DNA from: a virus
Direction: 5' to 3' (one strand)
Length of the DNA stretch: 45,147 nt
Virus record (IMG/VR): IMGVR_UViG_3300010311_000419
The notes below the pieces were generated by a model that worked only from the letters and a program-made list of their open reading frames with translations, did not search any database and was not told where the DNA came from. A program made the translations under genes and the position numbers. Positions 5,558-33,342 of the stretch are shown in pieces (the first letter of the stretch is position 1; every line of letters begins with the position of its first letter).

Positions 5558-5588
5558 TATTTTCTCTCCCTTCAAAAATAAAGTAGAA

Positions 5589-5606
5589 CGCGGGTTTTAC
5601 CCCGCG
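5589..5606 (-). terminator. Hairpin plus T-rich tract just downstream of the major tail protein gene
   Basis: CGCGGG-TTTTAC-CCCGCG stem-loop followed on the minus strand by a T-rich run. Confidence 0.35.
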
Positions 5607-5608
5607 CT

Positions 5609-6403
5609 CTAAGCGATGGTGAATGTTTCAAATGAGAAGGTCTGTGTCACTTCAAACTCGGAATCAGGGTCAACTCTTCCGGAGGCGCCGGTAATCTTCG
5701 CGCCAGTACCGGAGAATGTGATCTTGTGAGAAGCGCTCGATGCGTCCACATATTTAATTTCGAATGAGATCGCCGCTTTGGCCGGGTCCCACGCGCCCGA
5801 CGCAATTTTGCTTACGGTAGAGGATGCAATAACAAATTCTCCCTCGTAGGTAGCCGTTCCAATCTCCACGTCAGTCGGGGACAATGAAGTCCCGTAAATC
5901 CCGGTAACGTCTTGGTTTTTGTTGAGCGAGAAGCTACGAATCACATCCGTTTCGCTCGCCCACGTGATCGTTGCGTCCGAGAAAACGAAGTAAGTCTCTG
6001 GAGTGATCGCCGTGGGTGCTGTCGCACCAGTCGTGATGCTTAAGAACATTCCATCGAGCGAGTATTCGAGCGGCGCGTCCTCCCCACCACTGATAGTCAT
6101 GTTCCCGAAATAGCAACTCCCAAGCGTTGCATCGTGTACTCTCAACTCAACCGCGGGGGGGACTCCCTCACCGGTGTTTGTCCCGAACGCGAGAACGTCT
6201 TTGCTCGTAACCAATCCGCCAAGGCTGATCGCTTGATCGTATTTGGTCATTCTGGTCTTGGTATAACCGCCGATCCCTTTTTCTTCGGCGGCCTCGTTCG
6301 TTATCGAAGGCGATATGCTCTGGAGTAACCCGAGATGAACATTAGTCCCGGACGACTCAAGCCTGCCTACCACCTTCATTTGAGAACCTTGTAACGCTGC
6401 CAC
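5609..6403 (-). CDS. Major tail protein
   Basis: 264 aa, Thr/Ser/Gly-rich, between connector genes and chaperone/tape-measure genes; followed by terminator-like hairpin. Confidence 0.55.
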   Translation of the reverse strand: MAALQGSQMKVVGRLESSGTNVHLGLLQSISPSITNEAAEEKGIGGYTKTRMTKYDQAISLGGLVTSKDVLAFGTNTGEGVPPAVELRVHDATLGSCYFGNMTISGGEDAPLEYSLDGMFLSITTGATAPTAITPETYFVFSDATITWASETDVIRSFSLNKNQDVTGIYGTSLSPTDVEIGTATYEGEFVIASSTVSKIASGAWDPAKAAISFEIKYVDASSASHKITFSGTGAKITGASGRVDPDSEFEVTQTFSFETFTIA

Positions 6404-7653: not shown

Positions 7654-7687
7654 AAAAAGGACCAGCCGGCATTATACCGGCGTGGCC
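7654..7687 (-). terminator. Imperfect hairpin plus T-tract downstream of the major capsid gene
   Basis: GGACCAGCCGG / CCGGCGTGGCC arms with TTTTT following on the minus strand. Confidence 0.3.
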
Positions 7688-7689
7688 TA

Positions 7690-8751
7690 TTAGGATATCG
7701 TGCTTGTAAATACTTTGCACGCGTTAGCGTTATACAAAATCGGGAGAGGATAGGAGAGTAGCGATATAGTCTTCGTGTGCCCTTCGGATGCTTCGGGAAT
7801 CTTCTCTTTGACGATGACATCGGTCATAATTGGGGATCCATCGGGTTTGAGTTCAAAGTCGACAACCGCGCCGTAGCCGAGAGCAAACTGGCTTGTATTG
7901 AGCAGAATCATCTTTCCGCTTGTGCTTGAGGATTCGGGGATATACTTCGTCGCAACGTTCGAATCGTTCGCGTAGGTCCCGGAATACACGTATATCTCTG
8001 GGATTCCAAACTCTTGGAACTCACCGATGAACCGAACGCTCGGCGAATTAAACCGAGGCTTAAGCAACCCAAAGTTGTAATTGTTTTTGCTGATATACTT
8101 TTCTGTTTTTGAGTGGTTCATGATCCCGCGCGCAAGATACGGGGTCATCAGGATAACGTTCGGCCACATCCCGAGTGTTTGCGCGAACGTCTCGCATTCC
8201 GCGCCGATAAGTTCGAGCGGGTCCGTTGAACTGCTCACCGCGAGTTTCCCGGTTGTGCTGATTCTGTAATCCTGCTCAAATGTTCTTTCAGTCGTTGTGA
8301 AGCTGATTTTCCCAGTCAGGAGGAGTTGTCCGAACATATACTCGATACGGCGTTTAAGCCGATCGCGAAGCCCCTGGAGTTTAACGCCGTAGGAATACGC
8401 GAAGGAACGCGTGATATCCGAAGCGTCATTCAGGTTTGCAAGTTCATTCAGATTAAACGAAGAAGTCAGAGCTTCCGTCGATTCGATGCTGTCGCGTTCG
8501 AAGATTTGGGGCGGCGTCACGGTGATGTCTTCGGCGGTGTTCTTGTAATCAATATTGCGCGCCGGATCGTCACGTAATCCGATCGAGCTCATCTTGCCGG
8601 AAGTGGTGATCATTCGCCATTTGATCGTGGTCGTCGGGCTGAATATTTTACTGGATCCAAGCATTTGCGTGAGAAAGAACGGCTCATCCCTCATCTGTTG
8701 CAATACTTTAGTCAATAACGTAGTCCAGGTAGCACTGTTGAACGTCGCCAT
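7690..8751 (-). CDS. Major capsid protein (lambda E-like position)
   Basis: 353 aa ORF after scaffold and a small decoration-sized ORF, followed by a terminator. Confidence 0.55.
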   Translation of the reverse strand: MATFNSATWTTLLTKVLQQMRDEPFFLTQMLGSSKIFSPTTTIKWRMITTSGKMSSIGLRDDPARNIDYKNTAEDITVTPPQIFERDSIESTEALTSSFNLNELANLNDASDITRSFAYSYGVKLQGLRDRLKRRIEYMFGQLLLTGKISFTTTERTFEQDYRISTTGKLAVSSSTDPLELIGAECETFAQTLGMWPNVILMTPYLARGIMNHSKTEKYISKNNYNFGLLKPRFNSPSVRFIGEFQEFGIPEIYVYSGTYANDSNVATKYIPESSSTSGKMILLNTSQFALGYGAVVDFELKPDGSPIMTDVIVKEKIPEASEGHTKTISLLSYPLPILYNANACKVFTSTIS

Positions 8752-9278
8752 TACGCCGTCACCCCTTCTCTTTCAAGTACAATGATTCCGTTCTTCGCCA
8801 GTCTCGCTTTTGTGTCCGCGCTCAGCGTGCCGTACAGATCAGAATCGGCCACTACACCGTTGAGCAGAGTCTTCGCGTATCCGATCGTTTGGTTTTTATC
8901 TACATCTTCGGAGAGCACCGCGCACGGTTCGTAGGTGTACATGTTGTAACCAACTTTGATAACTGCGTTTTTCGTATGGCTCGATATCGTGATGACCTTC
9001 GTCGAGTAGTTCGTCGTGATCTTGGTGGTAGACGTGCCAACTGATACGGATAGTATCGCGGGAGAACCATATTCGATCGCGTAAGTGGCTGCTGTTAAGG
9101 CTGTGGCTGTGCTCGTCGCCATCGTGGTCGTAACGGTCACCGCCGTAGGAGTGGCTTTGTACAACCCCGTGAGGTTATCCCATCCCATCACCTGTTTCGC
9201 GGACAGCGTCGCGTTTGTTGCAACGGATACCATCAGTTCGTATCCGCTTTCAAACCCTTCGGTTTTCAAACTCATCAT
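8751..9278 (-). CDS. Putative head decoration / capsid accessory protein
   Basis: 175 aa, Thr/Ala-rich, between scaffold and major capsid genes. Confidence 0.35.
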   Translation of the reverse strand: MMSLKTEGFESGYELMVSVATNATLSAKQVMGWDNLTGLYKATPTAVTVTTTMATSTATALTAATYAIEYGSPAILSVSVGTSTTKITTNYSTKVITISSHTKNAVIKVGYNMYTYEPCAVLSEDVDKNQTIGYAKTLLNGVVADSDLYGTLSADTKARLAKNGIIVLEREGVTA

Positions 9279-10195
9279 TTCACCTCCACGCCGGCGAACG
9301 TTTTAGCCAGCTTGTCAATGTCTACCCCTTTAGGCGCTTCTTCGGAATCGGATAATCCTACGTAGCGTTTCGTCGGGACGGTTGTCGATGTTTCGAGGAT
9401 TGATTCGAAGAACTTCTCTTGATTAGGATCCTCGACCAGTTTATCTGCCAGCATCTTCACAAGCGCGGGGGCCTTGCTCTTCGCGAGCCAGCCGTCGCGC
9501 CATTGCTGCACGTGCATCGTGTGTTTCTCTTTTTGCATTGTTTCCAGATCATCGATGAGCTTCTTGATCTGGCCGTCTTTCTCTTTGATCTGCTCTTCGA
9601 ATTGCTTGGTAAGCGTTTCCTCTAACTGTTTGTTTTGCGTTTTCAAGGCTGCGAGTTCTTCTTCGTAGCGCTTGACAACAGCAAAATCGTTCGCGTTTTC
9701 TGCCATTCTCTTAGCTCCTTTGTCGTTGTTTCCATAGGCCGTCTCTATGTCAATCTCTACATTCCAGGTTATCAAGTTGTGTTCTCCATCCGCGTCTGTT
9801 AGCGTGATACGTTGCATTCCGGGTTGTGCCGGGATAGGCGTCAGCGATATCTCCAAAAGTGTTGGCCCTTCCTCTTGCCCGGTCGTCTTGTTGATATAGT
9901 TGTCGTGATAGGCAGGGCTCAAGAAGTCATACCGGCCGCTTTTGATTAGCTTCTCACCTTCCGAAGTGAACTCGATATCCGCGGCGAGCCCCTCATCTTT
10001 TATCCGCAATGCCTTAATCTCCCCGTACTTGCCACCTTTGCTCTCGTGAGACAGAAGTACTGGTATCGGATACGGCACAATCTTCCGGTCGAGATTCTTC
10101 TTGAGTTGTTCCGCGATTCTCTTCGAGTGTTCAACCCTGCCGTATCGAGAATCGTAGAAGGTTTGGAAAGGCAGGATCAGAACTTCTTTTGTCAC
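9275..10195 (-). CDS. Putative capsid scaffold / maturation protein
   Basis: 306 aa with a long charged coiled-coil C-terminal half (EELAALKTQNKQLEETLTKQFEEQIKEKDGQIKKL), upstream of capsid genes. Confidence 0.45.
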   Translation of the reverse strand: MTKEVLILPFQTFYDSRYGRVEHSKRIAEQLKKNLDRKIVPYPIPVLLSHESKGGKYGEIKALRIKDEGLAADIEFTSEGEKLIKSGRYDFLSPAYHDNYINKTTGQEEGPTLLEISLTPIPAQPGMQRITLTDADGEHNLITWNVEIDIETAYGNNDKGAKRMAENANDFAVVKRYEEELAALKTQNKQLEETLTKQFEEQIKEKDGQIKKLIDDLETMQKEKHTMHVQQWRDGWLAKSKAPALVKMLADKLVEDPNQEKFFESILETSTTVPTKRYVGLSDSEEAPKGVDIDKLAKTFAGVEVK

Positions 10196-12360
10196 ACCGT
10201 TTTCACCTCCTGTGATTCGGTTAATAGGTTTGCAATTATGTCTTTGATCGCGTTCAATTGCGCTTCTTCCCCATGTTCCTCGGCGTGTTTACGGTATCCT
10301 TCGCTGTCGTACTGGTTGCTTAGGATCATCCGCACGGCCTCGTCTACGGTGTTGTACAGGTATTCCTCGGGATACACGTCGGTTGCTCCCCAGAAGTGAT
10401 GGATGATCGGTTTAATTCCTTTGCTCTCCGCTTCGAGGATTGCCATGCCGGTCCCTTCGGTGTAGGATGTCGAGAGGAAATAGTTCTTATCTTCGAGGAA
10501 GGCGTTCATGTCTTTTTGATGCCCTACGAAGTGGATGTTACGTTCCAGCCCAAGCTGTGTGATGATGTGTTTGAGGTATTGCCAGAGCCGGATGTCTTGG
10601 AGTTCGCCAGCCCAGAATAACTCGTATCCGGGATCCAACCGCGCGAGCTGGTTCATTATCTGCACCATCATCATCGGGTTCTTCAGCGCGTTGATATGCC
10701 CGGCGAATGCGATCTTGTATCCGGTCCCGTGGTTACCGTAGCTGAATCGTTTGGTATCCACGCCCATCGGCACGAGAGCGACTTTATCCGCAGGCACGAT
10801 CTCTTTCGCCAGCTCATAGATATGATCCGCTTCGAACATCACACAATCGGCGTTGTTGTAGTTGATTTGTTTCAGGAATCCGTTGTAAGCCTCGTAAGCG
10901 TGTACGCGGATGATGGTCTTCTTTGCCGGATACTTGTTTGTCCCGGCGATCGCGAGTTCGTTTCCGAATTCGTACCAAACGAGATCGGCCCAGTCGATGT
11001 ACTGCTTCGCGTGTTCGATGTCACTTACCACCGCCGTCTGCACGATATAATCCCGCGCGAGTTCGTGTCGCACGCCGTGGAGGAATGAAGCGAGGCCCGG
11101 CGCGACGATGATTGCGATCTTCTTGCGTTTGGTAGCCATCTCATGATTGGCTTCACCGTACAACCGAGAGTAGTAAGGCGAGAGATTGATCCGTTCGTGA
11201 TCGGCGAGCTTAAGAATAGCCGGTTCGAAGCGTTTTAAGACATTTGCGTGTTGCGTTTGCGCGAGTGTTCTTATCAATTCATCCGCCGCCCACGTCGTGA
11301 TCGTCGTGGCCTTCACATCCCGCAGAATCACGAGCGCCCTGTCGATCATCCCCGTCTCCGCTGCCGCCTTGGCGCCGATGATCAGCGCAACGTCGTGATA
11401 CTTCTCGTATTGAAGCGTGAACAGACACCCGCTCTTGTTGAACGCCGCTACCTTTGCCGTGTACGTCTCAAAGGCTTTTAAGGCGTTAAGCGGCTGCTTG
11501 AGCGCGTTAAACATCAACTCCTCAACGATGTAAGAGTCCGGGCAATCAGGAGCCATTGACCGCGCCGCCGAGATGCACGCTCTGATGATGTCTTGTTCGT
11601 TGTATTCGAGCGCTTGCAACCCGAGAAGCACGAAGATGTCGTGCATCATTACGGGGATGGCCTTCGTCATTCTTACTTCCGAAAGCAACGCCTTGCCGTA
11701 CGTATAGGCTTCTTCTTTCTGCTCACACACGAGAAGCGTTTTGTAGTATTGCGCCTTGTAGTAGAGCCGCTCCATCCCGCTGAGTGTGTCGCCTTGGAGT
11801 ATCTTTTCCATCATCGACAGGAGCCGCTTGCGCTTCTTCTCTCTGAGCTCCGGCGTCCACTGATAACCGTAATGGTTTGATATCAGGTTCGTGGTGATGG
11901 TCTCTTGTTCATATTGCGGATGGTTATGCACCGCATACTTGTAGGAGATTGTGCCGCGGCGGAATATTCGAGGGAGTGTGAGCGAGTCTTGGAGTGTGTC
12001 CGTGATGATGTTGCGCGTAATCATCATAACCGTCTTAACTTCCGGTGGCTGAGATTCAAGCAATGGCCGGAGTTCTTTTTGCGCCTCTTCCGTAAGTTCT
12101 TCATCGCCGTCGTAGATGAACACCCAGTCGCCCACACATAAAGCGATCGATGCGTTCCTGGCCTCACTGAAATCTTCTTTCCATTCGTGGTCATACAGTT
12201 TGATCTTTTGATCGTTGAACCCGATGATGATCTCTTTTGTCCGATCAGCAGAACCGGTATCAAGTATCACTATCTCATCCGCGATTGGTAGAACGCTTCG
12301 GAGCGCTCTTTCTATGTTCTTCTCCTCGTCCCGTACTATCATTGCAACGCTAACTAACAT
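10192..12360 (-). CDS. Two-domain glycosyltransferase (N-terminal GT-A/family-2-like, C-terminal GT-B/family-4-like)
   Basis: N-terminus MIVRDEEKNIERAL..ILDTGSAD and YDGDEEL (DxD-type); C-terminus FVGHQKD...EGTGMAILEA resembles the GT4 E-x7-E region; 722 aa. Confidence 0.65.
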   Translation of the reverse strand: MLVSVAMIVRDEEKNIERALRSVLPIADEIVILDTGSADRTKEIIIGFNDQKIKLYDHEWKEDFSEARNASIALCVGDWVFIYDGDEELTEEAQKELRPLLESQPPEVKTVMMITRNIITDTLQDSLTLPRIFRRGTISYKYAVHNHPQYEQETITTNLISNHYGYQWTPELREKKRKRLLSMMEKILQGDTLSGMERLYYKAQYYKTLLVCEQKEEAYTYGKALLSEVRMTKAIPVMMHDIFVLLGLQALEYNEQDIIRACISAARSMAPDCPDSYIVEELMFNALKQPLNALKAFETYTAKVAAFNKSGCLFTLQYEKYHDVALIIGAKAAAETGMIDRALVILRDVKATTITTWAADELIRTLAQTQHANVLKRFEPAILKLADHERINLSPYYSRLYGEANHEMATKRKKIAIIVAPGLASFLHGVRHELARDYIVQTAVVSDIEHAKQYIDWADLVWYEFGNELAIAGTNKYPAKKTIIRVHAYEAYNGFLKQINYNNADCVMFEADHIYELAKEIVPADKVALVPMGVDTKRFSYGNHGTGYKIAFAGHINALKNPMMMVQIMNQLARLDPGYELFWAGELQDIRLWQYLKHIITQLGLERNIHFVGHQKDMNAFLEDKNYFLSTSYTEGTGMAILEAESKGIKPIIHHFWGATDVYPEEYLYNTVDEAVRMILSNQYDSEGYRKHAEEHGEEAQLNAIKDIIANLLTESQEVKTV

Positions 12361-12365
12361 CTTTT

Positions 12366-13271
12366 TTATGCTCCTTTCGCATAGATTCTCGCGGATTCGA
12401 AGAGCGGCGCACAGTAGCGCAGCATCTCCTCGCGAGGGATAGATGGTACACGGATAAAACTCGGCAATTGGTTGTTTAGATAACTGGAGGCAACCGTCAT
12501 GAAGTAGTTACGCAGGTATTCCGCACGGTTAATCGTTGCATTTCGCGGCATATACACGCTGTCCTCAAAATGATCGACGATATATCGAAGGATCGCGTTG
12601 ATCGCTCGAATGCGCCGTTCAATCCCGTGCGTATGGCTTGATTTGTGTATGCGATAGTGGCGGAATGGTTTGTTGATCGCTTTGGTACGCAAGCCCATTC
12701 GAAGATAGTGCATGGTGTTGATCGTGTCCACGTCGCATCCGAGATACTTGATATAACCGCGGCGCTTTAAGAAGGACGCTCTCATCAATCCTTTCGAAGA
12801 GATCACACTCGACCCGTGCCGTTCGAAGGTTCGCCGTACCGCGTCTTTCGCTTCATAATCCTCAACCGGCCACATCTCCGTCGAGCGGCCGTCTTCGTAA
12901 TGCACGCAGCAACCTGAGTACACGTAATCTATCCGCGGATCAGATTCGATCAGCTTCACCGATTCCGCTATCGTGTCCGGTTCGAGCCAGTCGTCCGCGT
13001 CGTAGAAGTAAATGTACTTGCCTTTCGCCTCTTCTATCATTCGATTTGTGCCTTCCAACACGCGGCCCGAGTTCATATCCGATCGAATGATCTTAATGCG
13101 ATCGGCATAACGGTTCAGCACATCGCCGGATTCGTCGGTCGAGCAGTCGTCGTACACAATGATCTCGAGATTGCGGTGTGTCTGGTCAAGCATCGAATCG
13201 ATGCACCGTGCGAGATACCGCCCGTAGTTGTAGTTATTGATCCCGACCGTGACTAACGGCGCCGTTTCCAT
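12366..13271 (-). CDS. Family-2-like glycosyltransferase
   Basis: VGINNYNYGRYLARCIDSMLDQT...IIVYDDCSTDES and YFYDADD motifs typical of GT-A fold. Confidence 0.65.
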   Translation of the reverse strand: METAPLVTVGINNYNYGRYLARCIDSMLDQTHRNLEIIVYDDCSTDESGDVLNRYADRIKIIRSDMNSGRVLEGTNRMIEEAKGKYIYFYDADDWLEPDTIAESVKLIESDPRIDYVYSGCCVHYEDGRSTEMWPVEDYEAKDAVRRTFERHGSSVISSKGLMRASFLKRRGYIKYLGCDVDTINTMHYLRMGLRTKAINKPFRHYRIHKSSHTHGIERRIRAINAILRYIVDHFEDSVYMPRNATINRAEYLRNYFMTVASSYLNNQLPSFIRVPSIPREEMLRYCAPLFESARIYAKGA

Positions 13272-13435
13272 TTTCTCGCCTTCTCTTCTTTTGCCGTTTC
13301 TTTTGCGGTGATCCCCGCGTAGAATCCAAGGCCGAGGCCAAGACCCACGCCGATGATGAATAGTATGATGTGCATTCTCTTCACTCTCCCAAACAAAAAA
13401 GAGCCTTCCGGCTCTTCTTTGTGTTTATTATTCAC
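13253..13435 (-). CDS. Small membrane protein (60 aa)
   Basis: One hydrophobic helix (IILFIIGVGLGLGLGFYAGI) plus basic tail. Confidence 0.3.
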   Translation of the reverse strand: MNNKHKEEPEGSFLFGRVKRMHIILFIIGVGLGLGLGFYAGITAKETAKEEKARKWKRRR

Positions 13436-16715: not shown

Positions 16716-17031
16716 CGAACCCGATCTTGATGAGTATATTGCCCCCGTGATCGATGTCGAGGTTATCGCGTTGCCCGAGATATTGTTTGCCTAACCATAT
16801 GAGTATCGTCCGGTCACCGCTTTCCGCTGCTTTCCATTGAAGCCTGCGGAGGCTTGCACGACCACGTTGTCGCTCTTGGTTATAGAGTTCATTAAACTTT
16901 GCGTCGCGTTGGAGCGTGTCAACGGAGAGTTCGAGAACCGCAGCGATCTCTTCTTGCGTACAATGTATCACCGATAGTTTCTTCACGAGTTCGTAGTCTA
17001 TTTTTTTTCTCGGTCTTGCCATCTGTATCAC
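16699..17031 (-). CDS. terS: Terminase small subunit
   Basis: 110 aa, basic N-terminus with HTH-like segment, directly upstream of terL. Confidence 0.55.
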   Translation of the reverse strand: MIQMARPRKKIDYELVKKLSVIHCTQEEIAAVLELSVDTLQRDAKFNELYNQERQRGRASLRRLQWKAAESGDRTILIWLGKQYLGQRDNLDIDHGGNILIKIGFDDDGE

Positions 17032-17058: not shown

Positions 17059-18216
17059 TTACTCTCTGGTTGCTTTCCTCCCTGCGAAATCTTCCCACCG
17101 CTTTACGATCACGTCGCAATACCCTGCATCAAGTTCCATCATGTAGCACTTGCGATTGAGCTGCTCGCAAGCGATGAGTGTTGAGCCGGAGCCGCCGAAG
17201 GGGTCAAGCACCAGCGTGTTGCTCATGGAGCTGTTCATAATGGGGTACGCCAAAAGCGGGATGGGCTTCATGGTTGGGTGATCGCCGTTTTTCTTAGGCT
17301 TGTCGAACTCCCAGATGGTGGTTTCCTTGCGTCCGCTGTACCACTGGTGCTTGCCGCTTTTCTTCCAGCCGTATAGCACAGGCTCATGCTGCCACTGATA
17401 CGGGGAGCGCCCCAGCACCAGCGACTGCTTTTTCCAGATACAGCAGCCGGACAAATAAAAACCGGCATCCGAAAAGGCTCTCCTGAAATTCAGCCCTTCG
17501 ATGTCGGAATGAAAAACATATATGCTGGCGTCGTCTGCCATGACTGCTTCGGTATTCTGGAACGCTGCCAACAGGAAGCTGTAAAAAGCATCGTTTGCCA
17601 TGTTGTCGTTCTTGATTTTCCCGGCACTGCCTTCATAGTTCACATTGTAGGGCGGGTCGGTCACGACCAGATTCGCCTTCTTGCCATCCATCAACCGCTC
17701 CACATCTTCACGCTTCGTACTATTTCCACAAAGCAAGCGGTGATCGCCAAGTATCCACAAGTCGCCGGCCTTGGTAATTGGTTCTTCCGGTGTCTCGGGC
17801 ACATCGTCCTCGTCCGTCAAACCGGTGTTCATATCCAAATCCATGCCAAAATCCGCTAAGTCAAATCCCAAAGCTTTGAGCTCCGACAACTCCCACTCGT
17901 TCGCCAACATGTCAAAATCCCAATCGCCCGCCATGCCACGTGGAGCATTATCCACAAGGATGAATCGCTTGCGTTGCTCCGCCGTTAGATTAGATGCCTT
18001 GACGATCCAACCGTCCGGGACATCTTTCATACCCAGCTCTTTGATTGCGCGATACCTCATATTGCCGCCGAGTATAATACCTTCATCATCAACAACTATT
18101 GGGCGGAGCGTCATAAACTCCGGATCACGTTTGATTGATTCGCACAATTTTTTGAACGCTTCATCCTTAATTATTCTTGGGTTCTTCGAATTAGCTTTGA
18201 TGTCGGATAAATTCAT
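17059..18216 (-). CDS. ParB-like nuclease domain fused to DNA methyltransferase (N6-A / N4-C class)
   Basis: N-terminal ParB-like segment; VTDPPYN (motif IV) and DPFGGSGST (motif I); GGAGG RBS. Confidence 0.8.
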   Translation of the reverse strand: MNLSDIKANSKNPRIIKDEAFKKLCESIKRDPEFMTLRPIVVDDEGIILGGNMRYRAIKELGMKDVPDGWIVKASNLTAEQRKRFILVDNAPRGMAGDWDFDMLANEWELSELKALGFDLADFGMDLDMNTGLTDEDDVPETPEEPITKAGDLWILGDHRLLCGNSTKREDVERLMDGKKANLVVTDPPYNVNYEGSAGKIKNDNMANDAFYSFLLAAFQNTEAVMADDASIYVFHSDIEGLNFRRAFSDAGFYLSGCCIWKKQSLVLGRSPYQWQHEPVLYGWKKSGKHQWYSGRKETTIWEFDKPKKNGDHPTMKPIPLLAYPIMNSSMSNTLVLDPFGGSGSTLIACEQLNRKCYMMELDAGYCDVIVKRWEDFAGRKATRE

Positions 18217-18240
18217 AGTTCCTCCCCTAAATTTTCCAAC

Positions 18241-18260
18241 AAAAAAGGGCCCGGAGGCCC
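18241..18260 (-). terminator. Intrinsic terminator between the late promoter and the first late gene
   Basis: GGGCC-CGGA-GGCCC hairpin followed on the minus strand by TTTTTT. Confidence 0.5.
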
Positions 18261-18309
18261 TTATTCATATTTCATCCGCGGTATTCTCATACCTGCGGCT
18301 ATTATATCG

Positions 18310-18338
18310 ATAATACCACAATTATGTTTTTTTGTCAA
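18310..18338 (-). promoter_or_regulatory. Near-consensus sigma-70-type promoter (candidate late promoter)
   Basis: Minus-strand TTGACA (18338-18333), 17-bp spacer, TATTAT (18315-18310); abuts the stop of the upstream ORF. Confidence 0.45.
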
Positions 18339-18820
18339 GTGGTATCGTTTTTATCTGTCATCGCTTCCTCATTTATTATCCCCGTTAGCCTCTCCAAACA
18401 GAACCGCTTCATCTTGTACAGCTTACTCGTCGAGCAGTCGAACAACACTGCCAGACGCCGCACCGGCAGCGTCCTAAACTTCATCCGGCCCCACTCGTAC
18501 TCCAGCCACGCGCTCATGGTATTCGCGGGCTCGAAGTCGTGGTTGATATAGCAGTGGAACAGGATCGTGCGGCACTCTCGCGGGAGCTGATTGTACCAGC
18601 GATCGAAGAACTTGATAAACAAACCCGCGCGCACCTGATCGTTCAGGCACGCGAGCTCGTTTGGATGCCCGCTCAGGTACCAGTCGATTTCGCCGGAAGG
18701 CAGAATCACGAGATGCACGCGGCAGCCGAGATAACGTTGCACGTTTGCCTTGTAACTCTGCAGCATCCGCACAACGTCCGCATTGGATACGCGGCTATTT
18801 TTGAGAGTGATATCGCGCAT
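18335..18820 (-). CDS. Putative late-gene regulator (candidate Q-like antiterminator); function not established
   Basis: 161 aa, several Cys/His; last early-arm gene, immediately upstream of promoter-terminator pair. Confidence 0.3.
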   Translation of the reverse strand: MRDITLKNSRVSNADVVRMLQSYKANVQRYLGCRVHLVILPSGEIDWYLSGHPNELACLNDQVRAGLFIKFFDRWYNQLPRECRTILFHCYINHDFEPANTMSAWLEYEWGRMKFRTLPVRRLAVLFDCSTSKLYKMKRFCLERLTGIINEEAMTDKNDTT

Positions 18821-19101
18821 TGGACTCTGCGATTGCGATAAGATCGGCCTTCCGTTTGCCGATCATCGCTTCAAGTTCGGATATGCGTGTAACAATTGCC
18901 TCGAGTTCGGATATTTTTGCGACATCGCCTTGTATCGCTTCCACTTTGCAGAGCCTGAGCCGGGACGTCATACGCGATATTGTTTCGATGTTTCTTTTTG
19001 TGTTGTACAGCTCTAACTCTATCGTTTGGTATGCCGTGAATATGTTTCGGAATTCTTGCTCGCCCAAGTTTCTAAGCTCCATCATGTTTCGTTCGCTCAT
19101 T
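18795..19101 (-). CDS. Coiled-coil protein (102 aa from internal ATG)
   Basis: GGAGGG RBS before ATG at 19101; heptad-like ELEA repeats; track N-terminal extension is Arg-rich and non-protein-like. Confidence 0.4.
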
Positions 19102-19650
19102 TTATACCCTCCCCAGCATCGTATCCAATATGTACCGCGACCACGATTCGAGCGGCATCTTATCGAGCTCCTCGATCGTGTGCCAACGCCACTCCGGTAT
19201 CTCGTCCGATGGTTTGAGTTCGCCTGCCCACTTCGTGCAAAACGACGCCACACCGAGATGAACGCGATCAACAGCGGTTTTGTGCAGCATAATGCTGATT
19301 CGGTATTGGAGATGTACCGGTGTTACGCCAATCTCTTCGAACATCTCGCGCCGTCTCGCGTTGTCTACCGCAGGCCAGCCGTATCCGTCGTTCTCGTCCA
19401 CGTGCCCGCCGATCCCGATGGTGAGTTGATCGTGCAACCGGCTTTCACCGCTCGTCTTTTGCCGTTTGTAAGCAAGTATCTTGCCGTTGTCGCCTCTCGT
19501 GCGGTCGAACAGCACCGTATATGGTATCAGTTGCCGGTACGCGTAGTTCGTCTCGACAATGCTCCGTTCGAGGTAGACACCGCGGGCGTTTACGTATTCC
19601 ACCACGTCATCGATGTCGCTGATCGCTGGAACGCATAGTATCTTCGCCAT
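19102..19650 (-). CDS. Nudix hydrolase
   Basis: Nudix box GGHVDENDGYGWPAVDNARRREMFEEIGV. Confidence 0.75.
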   Translation of the reverse strand: MAKILCVPAISDIDDVVEYVNARGVYLERSIVETNYAYRQLIPYTVLFDRTRGDNGKILAYKRQKTSGESRLHDQLTIGIGGHVDENDGYGWPAVDNARRREMFEEIGVTPVHLQYRISIMLHKTAVDRVHLGVASFCTKWAGELKPSDEIPEWRWHTIEELDKMPLESWSRYILDTMLGRV

Positions 19651-26026: not shown

Positions 26027-26131
26027 TAAATCACCTTCTTTCTTACAGAGAGTAGTATATCACGTATTTTACTCTTTGTCAATACTAAGCACAAAACCTT
26101 ACTTAAAGTCTTTTGACTAAGAGCGAAGAGG
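26027..26131. promoter_or_regulatory. Divergent switch region between cro-like and cI-like genes
   Basis: Minus: TTGACA (26082-26077), 17 bp, TATACT (26059-26054). Plus: TTGACT (26113-26118), 17 bp, TAAAAT (26136-26141). Repeated ACTAAG half-site-like motifs at 26085 and 26116. Confidence 0.45.
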
Positions 26132-26485
26132 GTGCTAAAATTGATTGCAATGGGCTTTGAAGCTAAAACAACAGGAAAAAGAATCGCGGATATTCGAGGT
26201 AAGAATAATATTAGTCAAGAGAAGTTGGCTGAAACGCTAAGCAAGAGCGTATCCCTGATTTCTCTTTACGAGGGCGGGCATCGTGTACCACCGCCAGATG
26301 TTTTGTACCAGCTTTCAGAATTGTTTGGGGTATCTGTGGATTATTTGCTTGGCCTTACCGACAACCCAAAGCCGATCGGAGGTTTACCTCCCGACTACGC
26401 TCGTCTAAAAGCGATCGAGGTGGAATTGGAGAAGATCGACCTCGCGCGGATCATCGAGATCGAGCGGCTGATGCGGAAGTTATAG
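26132..26485 (+). CDS. CI-like HTH (XRE family) repressor
   Basis: ISQEKLAETLSKSVSLISLYEGG HTH; only plus-strand gene in the early region; may start at ATG 26150 as a leaderless mRNA. Confidence 0.65.
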   Translation: MLKLIAMGFEAKTTGKRIADIRGKNNISQEKLAETLSKSVSLISLYEGGHRVPPPDVLYQLSELFGVSVDYLLGLTDNPKPIGGLPPDYARLKAIEVELEKIDLARIIEIERLMRKL

Positions 26486-33328: not shown

Positions 33329-33342
33329 TCTTAGATAACGGA

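Follow-up and report, generated by a model that had tools for sequence, protein, structure and literature searches.

The window analysed here is a stretch of viral DNA of 45,147 nucleotides (nt) (IMG/VR record IMGVR_UViG_3300010311_000419), and the element under study lies at positions 18,217–18,820, where an open reading frame (ORF) of 161 amino acids (aa), the last gene of the early operon, is followed by a promoter, an intrinsic terminator and the late genes. Every gene in this region lies on the minus strand, and the coordinates of the features are collected in Table 1. An earlier note on this DNA had read the arrangement as a late-control module of the lambda pR′-tR′ kind, with the 161-aa ORF in the position of Q. 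Its description of the ORF as ending at a near-consensus promoter is correct, with the TGA stop codon lying inside the −35 hexamer and 17 bp separating the −35 and −10 hexamers. The promoter matches the sigma-70/sigma-A-type consensus at 11 of 12 positions and is TG-extended, and it is the sole 11/12 site with TG between 12 and 25 kb of the window. Within the spacer, 13 of 17 positions are conserved in the related locus L020, while the region upstream of the −35 hexamer is not conserved. The spacers of the Marinitoga group contain an ACAAAAT(A/G)TGG block that resembles the A-rich ACAnAAT block of the window, and the latter is a candidate binding element for the 161-aa protein.

Two features overlooked in the earlier note lie just downstream of the promoter. 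The first is a perfect second −10-like hexamer, which spans approximately −3 to +3 of the predicted transcript and is a candidate sigma-dependent pause element; the early promoter of the window, used as a control, does not have a second hexamer. The second is a leader hairpin that is also found in L020 (8178–8205), where the A that is bulged in the window is base-paired and a G-U pair has arisen through an A-to-G change, for a fold of −15.0 kcal/mol. The L020 leader contains an additional A-rich stretch of about 30 nt ahead of the terminator. This hairpin is lineage-specific, being present in the window and L020 and absent from the other lineages. An Rfam scan of 18000–18600 returned sub-threshold small-RNA noise, with no family match to the leader, and a known riboswitch or leader RNA was rejected on this basis. 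A classical attenuator acting through alternative pairing of leader and terminator is also unsupported, both hairpins being kept in the minimum free energy and centroid folds.

The clean terminator that had been placed about 45 nt downstream begins 47 nt past the −10 hexamer and is composed of AAGGGCC-tccg-GGCCCTT (18262–18245) followed by TTTTGTTGG, and the ribosome-binding site (RBS) of the first late gene comes next, as had been described. The T-tract ends about 9 nt short of the RBS, too little for the first late gene to have a promoter of its own. Between cassettes that have otherwise diverged, the terminator stands out with 96% identity. The identification of the first late gene as a ParB-methyltransferase is likewise upheld by matches to N6_N4_Mtase (2e-28), ParB_N (1e-5, just below the Pfam cut-off) and phrog_498 (7e-159), and the gene is followed by a terS-like gene, TerL, the portal gene and structural genes. 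In relatives the methyltransferase is variable: some have an allele of 43% identity, some have other genes in its place, and in some a 22-aa remnant is left. The remnant, MKLFDVIVKRWEDFTGGKANRE, is encoded at 8917–8982 of L001 and was produced by in-frame deletion, retaining the first codons and the C-terminal 18 or so residues; the methyltransferase past the terminator is therefore dispensable cargo. Three further terminators on the coding strand of the late operon (Table 1) fit better with a processive mechanism than with a single attenuator.

Table 1. Features of the late-control region and late-operon terminators of the window, with predicted folding energies where available.
Feature	Position	Strand	Remark
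161-aa ORF, candidate Q-like antiterminator, phrog_35069	18335..18820	−	last early-operon gene
−35 hexamer TTGACA	18333..18338	−	contains the TGA stop of the 161-aa ORF (18337–18335)
Spacer aaaaaacataattgTGg, 17 nt, with extended −10 TGn (TGg) at its end	18316..18332	−	
−10 hexamer TATTAT	18310..18315	−	
Second −10-like hexamer TATAAT, perfect, 3 nt past −10	18301..18306	−	candidate sigma-dependent pause element
Leader hairpin CCGC(A)GGTAT-gaga-ATACCGCGG	18276..18298	−	fold −11.5 kcal/mol
Intrinsic terminator: 7-bp GC-rich stem, tetraloop, T-tract	18236..18262	−	−13.6 kcal/mol
RBS GGGGAGG (18227–18221) and ATG (18216) of first late gene	18214..18227	−	
ParB-N / N6_N4 DNA methyltransferase, first gene past terminator	17059..18216	−	
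Strong intrinsic terminator after Mu-F-like head gene, in late operon	13390..13416	−	−13.3 kcal/mol
Terminator-like hairpin after major head protein gene	7655..7681	−	
Strong terminator, 11-bp stem, in tail gene region	5574..5611	−	−20.8 kcal/mol

The 161-aa protein belongs to phrog_35069, which carries the PHROGs label 'unknown function' (1e-7 for the window protein; 20 of 20 relatives match, best 1.6e-86). Close homologues number only six in 5.8 billion clusters, and a profile search of 1.8 billion representatives returned 19 proteins, all phrog_35069. Source annotations of the relatives read 'hypothetical', and MPV1_16 is labelled 'RNA polymerase sigma factor'. The window protein itself gave no Pfam match at E ≤ 1 and, at the same threshold, only a sub-threshold match to MG284/MPN403_C in an NCBIfam scan. 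In 14 of 20 relatives Sigma70_r4 passes for the C-terminal half, and a PDB sequence profile search gave weak matches, to sigma region 4 and LuxR-type helix-turn-helix (HTH) domains only. Among the PHROGs, families labelled 'RNA polymerase sigma factor' and 'transcriptional activator' give cross-matches, and Sigma70_r2 is absent among the matches listed for the 20 relatives.

An AlphaFold model built on a 20-sequence alignment is confident (predicted local distance difference test, pLDDT, 86; predicted template modelling score, pTM, 0.80) and supersedes a mediocre AF2 model from seven close sequences (pLDDT 73). The model is composed of a helix (residues 13–31), a beta hairpin (35–49) and a helical domain resembling sigma region 4 (59–160), which is broken before the HTH by a 26-residue insertion bearing the invariant residues H94, D95 and E97. 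The N-terminal 58 residues form one helix and the beta hairpin, sigma region 2 is missing, and the 20-member alignment has no conserved cysteine, so the protein is neither a complete sigma factor nor a zinc protein of the Q-lambda kind. The presence of Cys and His residues, which the earlier note had mentioned, thus carries no signal, and a zinc-binding, Q-lambda-like reading of it was rejected. The same note had proposed a comparison of the predicted structure with Q-family antiterminators. The outcome is divided, in that the fold of sigma region 4 is the core fold of 21Q and is equally that of sigma factors and activators. As modelled, the fold appears compatible with a Q-like role, and is not proof of one.

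Upstream, a 104-aa coiled-coil ORF (18795–19109, minus strand) overlaps the start of the 161-aa ORF by 26 nt and is found in closer relatives only. The two ORFs have weak complementary matches to phrog_36, 'transcriptional regulator', at positions 40–128 and 129–189. The 104-aa ORF could be a partner of the 161-aa protein, or the two could represent a split of a larger regulator.

Relatives of the 161-aa protein were found at 33 viral and 4 genomic loci, plus Marinitoga phage MPV1 and MCV2. Every lineage with enough downstream DNA, 16 in all and spanning 22–99% protein identity, carries the same composite element: a TTGACx −35 hexamer, a spacer of 17–18 nt, a TGn-extended −10 hexamer, a TAnnnT hexamer 3–5 nt farther on, and a terminator. 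In most lineages the −35 hexamer is TTGACA, TTGACT or TTGACG, at a spacing of 17–18 nt, and the terminators are canonical (−10 to −17 kcal/mol), starting 28–76 nt past the −10. The element shares the strand of the gene and occupies a place downstream of it, with terS/terL or cargo genes following. A scan of both strands of 224 kb of non-redundant loci returned 17 occurrences against 0.23 expected (maximum 1) in Markov-2 simulations, and every match was on the strand of the gene and downstream of it. Distant relatives (22–35% identity), which include prophages of Pseudothermotoga, Marinitoga and other Thermotogota as well as two virus isolates, MPV1 and MCV2, differ in sequence and retain the same architecture, with second hexamers that include TATGAT, TAAGAT, TACAGT, TATAGT, TAGAAT and TACGAT, among others. 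A TGn of its own precedes the second hexamer in 7 of the 12 inspected, and in several lineages a third hexamer is found one helical turn on, at a spacing of about 10 nt. A leaderless mini-ORF starting from the ATG of TATGAT was considered and rejected, as the ATG is missing from 9 of 16 second hexamers. In many lineages only 12–25 nt lie ahead of the terminator, which leaves little room for an RNA-based element of the put/nut type.

The pR′-tR′ logic proposed in the earlier note is strongly supported by these comparisons: the promoter and terminator are kept ahead of the packaging genes wherever the ORF family occurs, the −10-like element is kept with them, and there is no room for another promoter. 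A chance pairing of promoter-like and terminator-like sequences has, in our estimate, a vanishingly small probability. Single consensus scans do match often, one such scan giving 8 promoter-like sites where 11.8 are expected, but the excess of the composite element, its recurrence at the same genomic position in 16 lineages and the 93–98% identity of the cassette in relatives whose flanks differ effectively refute that explanation.

The specificity of the pattern was gauged by a control scan of the collection for TTGAC..TGnTATAAT-N4-TATGAT, which returned at least 120 stretches, 80 of which were examined. These 80 promoters are mostly unrelated, many apparently with leaderless ATG starts, and a terminator lies within 90 nt at five of them, one of the five being a locus of the family. 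The two-hexamer pattern alone is therefore not diagnostic; together with a terminator beside a phrog_35069 gene, it is.

Two side observations concern such promoters. The promoter TTGACA-N-TGTTATAAT-atat-TATGATTATCGTTGATATAAACC is common to many unrelated, mostly environmental viral contigs (L044, L051, L052, L064, L066, L068, L071 and others), in which its ATG appears to start a conserved leaderless gene. At 8460–8740 of L030, downstream of the family gene, two full units of promoter, second hexamer and terminator stand in tandem, accompanied by a third extended −10 promoter.

The distance between gene and cassette varies among relatives. In L001, a 96%-identical relative, an insert of 5 kb separates the homologous gene from the promoter-hairpin-terminator block, which is itself 93–98% identical and stands directly ahead of the 22-aa methyltransferase remnant and terS. 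Elsewhere among the close relatives, 20 nt to 1 kb lie between the gene and the block, whose place is invariably ahead of the packaging genes. An extra terminator is present between the ORF and the cassette in L019 and L021, so the cassette terminator is not merely that of the early operon. The window and L026 have late genes of 92–97% aa identity, whereas their regulators are 35% identical and their promoters and leaders differ; L025 and L034 have the regulator and cassette of L026, placed before a TerL that is only 48–50% identical. The terminator is conserved across the window, L026, L025 and L034. The regulator allele and the promoter/leader allele thus move together between late modules. 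The assignment of the ORF to the Q position stands in part, since the ORF is conserved and its allele co-varies with promoter and leader; adjacency to the promoter is not obligatory, given inserts of 0.9–5 kb.

These observations also bear on the proposal that the promoter and terminator form a small-RNA gene, an insulator or both, with the 161-aa protein unrelated to the unit and the late genes read through from the early operon or by means of another antiterminator, such as a different early protein. We regard this as quite improbable. A discrete RNA of about 45–65 nt would be produced from the unit, as from PR′ units (PMC7547250), and the leader hairpin of the window is kept in L020 with compensating changes, but the leader between hexamer and terminator is short (12–25 nt in many lineages), is not conserved across lineages and has no Rfam match. 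The inserts that separate gene from cassette would be in keeping with an unrelated protein, yet the protein allele co-varies with the promoter/leader allele. Read-through past an insulator is at odds with L019 and L021, where early transcription is ended ahead of the cassette, and would make a strong promoter upstream of the terminator pointless.

A Q cassette has been defined as a Q gene, a constitutive PR′ promoter, a promoter-proximal −10-like element for sigma-dependent pausing (SDPE), a terminator plus the late genes, with a binding element in the spacer (bioRxiv 10.1101/651190; PMC9388147; PMC6606751). As far as sequence can tell, the cassette of the window fits this definition element for element, the binding element as a candidate only. 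The regulator gene lies upstream of a promoter-terminator unit ahead of the late genes in the window and the 16 lineages, and a −10-like sequence is present in the initially transcribed region, 3–5 nt past the −10, in all lineages.

Among known systems, phage 21 Q with PR′21 has the same order of regulator, constitutive consensus promoter, −10-like element, intrinsic terminator and late genes, and the lambdoid Q systems share the co-variation of regulator and promoter region as a specificity unit. The 21Q core has been described as similar to sigma region 4 (PMC6606751), and its HTH is interrupted; the corresponding domain of the 161-aa protein is modelled with a 26-residue insertion before the HTH. 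In contrast to 21Q, the 161-aa protein has an N-terminal domain of helix and beta hairpin, with no sequence similarity to 21Q and no Pfam match, and the hosts are Thermotogota-type bacteria rather than enterobacteria. The terminator is also much nearer to the promoter than at PR′21, and the −10-like element is merely 3–5 nt past the −10. Helices of 21Q form a ring in the RNA exit channel; a ring or nozzle segment and a binding element have not been identified in the 161-aa system.

The geometry of the pause element is closer to that of AlpA at PalpB of Pseudomonas aeruginosa, where the −10-like element is at −1 to +5 (PMC9371919), within 1–2 nt of the geometry predicted here. AlpA is also a small HTH protein that loads at a sigma-dependent pause, with a binding element between the −35 and the −10 and a close intrinsic terminator, but it is about 70 aa long, belongs to another family and has a lysis cluster, not a phage structural operon, under its control. 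By analogy, the regulators of gene transfer agents (GTAs) appear to be the closest precedent for the 161-aa protein. BrrG of the Bartonella GTA uses TTGACA-N17-TATCAT, a −10-like element and a terminator ahead of capsid genes (bioRxiv 10.1101/2024.11.20.624540), and GafA, which has a C-terminal domain similar to sigma region 4, was initially taken for a sigma or transcription factor (bioRxiv 10.1101/2024.11.20.624540; PMC11150451). BrrG and GafZ have been shown, and GafA proposed, to be processive antiterminators (bioRxiv 10.1101/2024.11.20.624540; PMC11150451), and the BrrG preprint relates BrrG, GafA and GafZ structurally to 21Q (bioRxiv 10.1101/2024.11.20.624540). These GTA proteins differ in being domesticated in Alphaproteobacteria, and GafZ requires GafY, IHF and Nus factors; no sequence relationship between them and the 161-aa protein was found, no search aimed at one being made.

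RinA, ArpU and LtrC of Gram-positive phages resemble the 161-aa protein in being small products of the last early gene just upstream of terS, with a proposed role in the control of packaging and lysis genes. They are described as promoter activators, whereas here a consensus promoter is the target, with a terminator after it. On this model the 161-aa protein would be a late activator of the sigma-region-4 type, or a sigma-like factor, that boosts or redirects initiation, and the terminator would serve as no more than a leaky attenuator, or some other factor would overcome it. The fold, the Pfam matches to sigma region 4, the PHROG cross-matches to sigma factor and activator families and the annotation of MPV1_16 all agree with such a role, but the lack of a sigma region 2 in the 161-aa protein means that it cannot be a sigma factor. 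The site just upstream of terS is the classical RinA-type position (PMC3753634, PMC3152322), but the protein has no NCBIfam or Pfam match to the RinA/ArpU families (NCBIfam TIGR01636/TIGR01637 and related). Activation alongside antitermination is known for GafY (PMC11150451). An activator should be unneeded at a promoter that is near-consensus for the housekeeping sigma in most lineages, and activation leaves both the conserved terminator right past the promoter and the second −10-like hexamer unexplained. We consider activation alone unlikely.

The best explanation overall is a Q-type late-gene antitermination cassette, to which we assign a probability of roughly 0.58. Its sequence elements make it highly probable that the cassette is an antitermination-controlled late switch; that the 161-aa protein is the antiterminator is a less secure proposal, which the sequence comparisons favour somewhat. 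We infer pausing, DNA binding, loading onto polymerase and antitermination by the 161-aa protein in the following sequence. Host RNA polymerase with sigma-A would start constitutively at the near-consensus promoter (18338–18310), and sigma region 2 would rebind at the second hexamer, one helical turn downstream, to give a promoter-proximal pause. When the phage factor is absent, polymerase would stop at the terminator and release a transcript of about 65 nt, leaving the genes for the methyltransferase, terminase, head and tail silent. The 161-aa protein, made as the final product of the early/replication operon, would bind promoter DNA through its HTH of the sigma-region-4 type, probably at the A-rich spacer, and pass to the paused polymerase, which would become resistant to the cassette terminator and to at least three more in the late operon.

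Several points weigh against this reading. The Q-family tests, made with the window protein against Pfam at E ≤ 1 and with the 20 relatives at E ≤ 0.1 among the first 25 of 36 families listed, gave no sequence similarity to Q21 (PF06530), Q-lambda (PF03589) or Q82 (PF06323). A Foldseek search with the model against the PDB matches sigma factors only, at E > 0.3, and the structural likeness to 21Q is modest and no better than that to sigma region 4 itself. The earlier description of the ORF as Q-like therefore holds only at the level of the proposed mechanism and of the fold, with sigma region 4 as the core fold of 21Q, and fails at that of family, there being neither a Q-family match nor a zinc ribbon. 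Gene and cassette can be 0.9–5 kb apart in relatives, and in MPV1 the second hexamer is parted from the terminator by a toxin-antitoxin module. Conservation of the spacer is seen within sub-lineages, and from one lineage to another its motif is weakly conserved. Relative to the predicted transcription start site, the second hexamer is 1–3 nt farther upstream than documented pause elements, and as a second TGn-extended −10 it could be an overlapping promoter rather than a pause site. The hexamer search required A at position 2 and T at position 6, so the conservation of the hexamer is partly by construction, though T is present at position 1, where it was not required, in 16 of 16.

Q-dependent antitermination is a textbook mechanism that, to our knowledge, has been documented almost exclusively in proteobacterial phages and in domesticated derivatives of them. 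A literature search found no description of an antitermination system in Marinitoga or Thermotogota viruses, or with RinA-type regulators, and the pairing, in Thermotogota-type siphoviruses, of a Q-type cassette with a protein family that is unrelated and unannotated is probably new. We see an even chance that phrog_35069 constitutes a previously unrecognised family of Q-type processive antiterminators with a sigma-region-4 fold that load at a promoter-proximal pause dependent on sigma-A and serve siphoviruses of Thermotogota and relatives, MPV1 and MCV2 among them. The 161-aa protein should not be filed in the Q21, Q-lambda, Q82 or RinA/ArpU families. Were antitermination confirmed, the lambda PR′-tR′ strategy would be in use far outside the Proteobacteria, in a deep-branching and partly thermophilic phylum, and would have been missed through 'hypothetical' and 'sigma factor' annotations, which would be corrected ('RNA polymerase sigma factor' for MPV1_16, 'hypothetical' for the others). 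It would also provide a new small protein based on sigma region 4 for structural work on terminator-resistant polymerase, and a simple sequence signature for late-control switches in metagenomic phages, in which a consensus promoter is followed, one helical turn on, by a second −10-like hexamer and then by a terminator. MPV1 is inducible in culture, so the prediction is directly testable.

Additional observations concern DNA that has been inserted around the cassette in relatives. The roughly 5-kb module that separates the 161-aa homologue from the cassette (L001 3739–7586; also in L002–L005, L022 and L023) is absent from the window and encodes proteins with Pfam matches to Csf1, Csf3 and PAPS_reduct, together with several unknowns, and has its own terminator at the end; it looks like a DNA-modification module. 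In MPV1 (L043, 4450–5965) the toxin-antitoxin module, MPV1_17-19, has its own promoter and is inserted in the leader, and the ancestral terminator is identifiable by comparison with L029 and MCV2. The Marinitoga viruses also contain short direct repeats past the terminator, around a tRNA-Pro gene and just ahead of terS (TCGACA every 11 nt or so, and CCGGCA), at 8536–8600 of L029, 5965–6040 and 6150–6230 of L043 and about 10275–10320 of L038. These repeats could act as pac sites, bind terS or have some further regulatory role.

Within the late operon of the window, a promoter-like site matching 10 of 12 consensus positions (TCGACA-16-TATACT, 16733–16760, minus strand) lies inside terS, just before the start of TerL, and could be due to chance or be an internal promoter. 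A small hydrophobic ORF and glycosyltransferases of 301 aa (GT2) and 722 aa (GT2 and GT1) are encoded at 10192–13380 on the minus strand. This block, an unusual cargo at such a position, lies directly past the terminator at 13416–13390, between the Mu-F-like head gene and the protease/capsid genes.

Elsewhere in the window, divergent near-consensus TG-extended promoters (minus strand, 26082–26054; plus strand, 26113–26141) are found at 26040–26145, between a Cro-like HTH ORF and a 117-aa repressor-like ORF (HTH_19/HTH_3), and this region is likely to be the lysis-lysogeny switch. The segment 27650–33330 contains an RRXRR-HNH protein, a second N6_N4 methyltransferase and a truncated serine-recombinase ORF; at 33330–33284 there is a very strong terminator, whose stem is 20 bp long. 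From 33.5 to 45 kb the genes are on the minus strand again, and one of them encodes a protein of 852 aa that has a glycine-rich domain. Possibly the window is a complete phage genome in permuted form, with the late operon wrapping round its ends.

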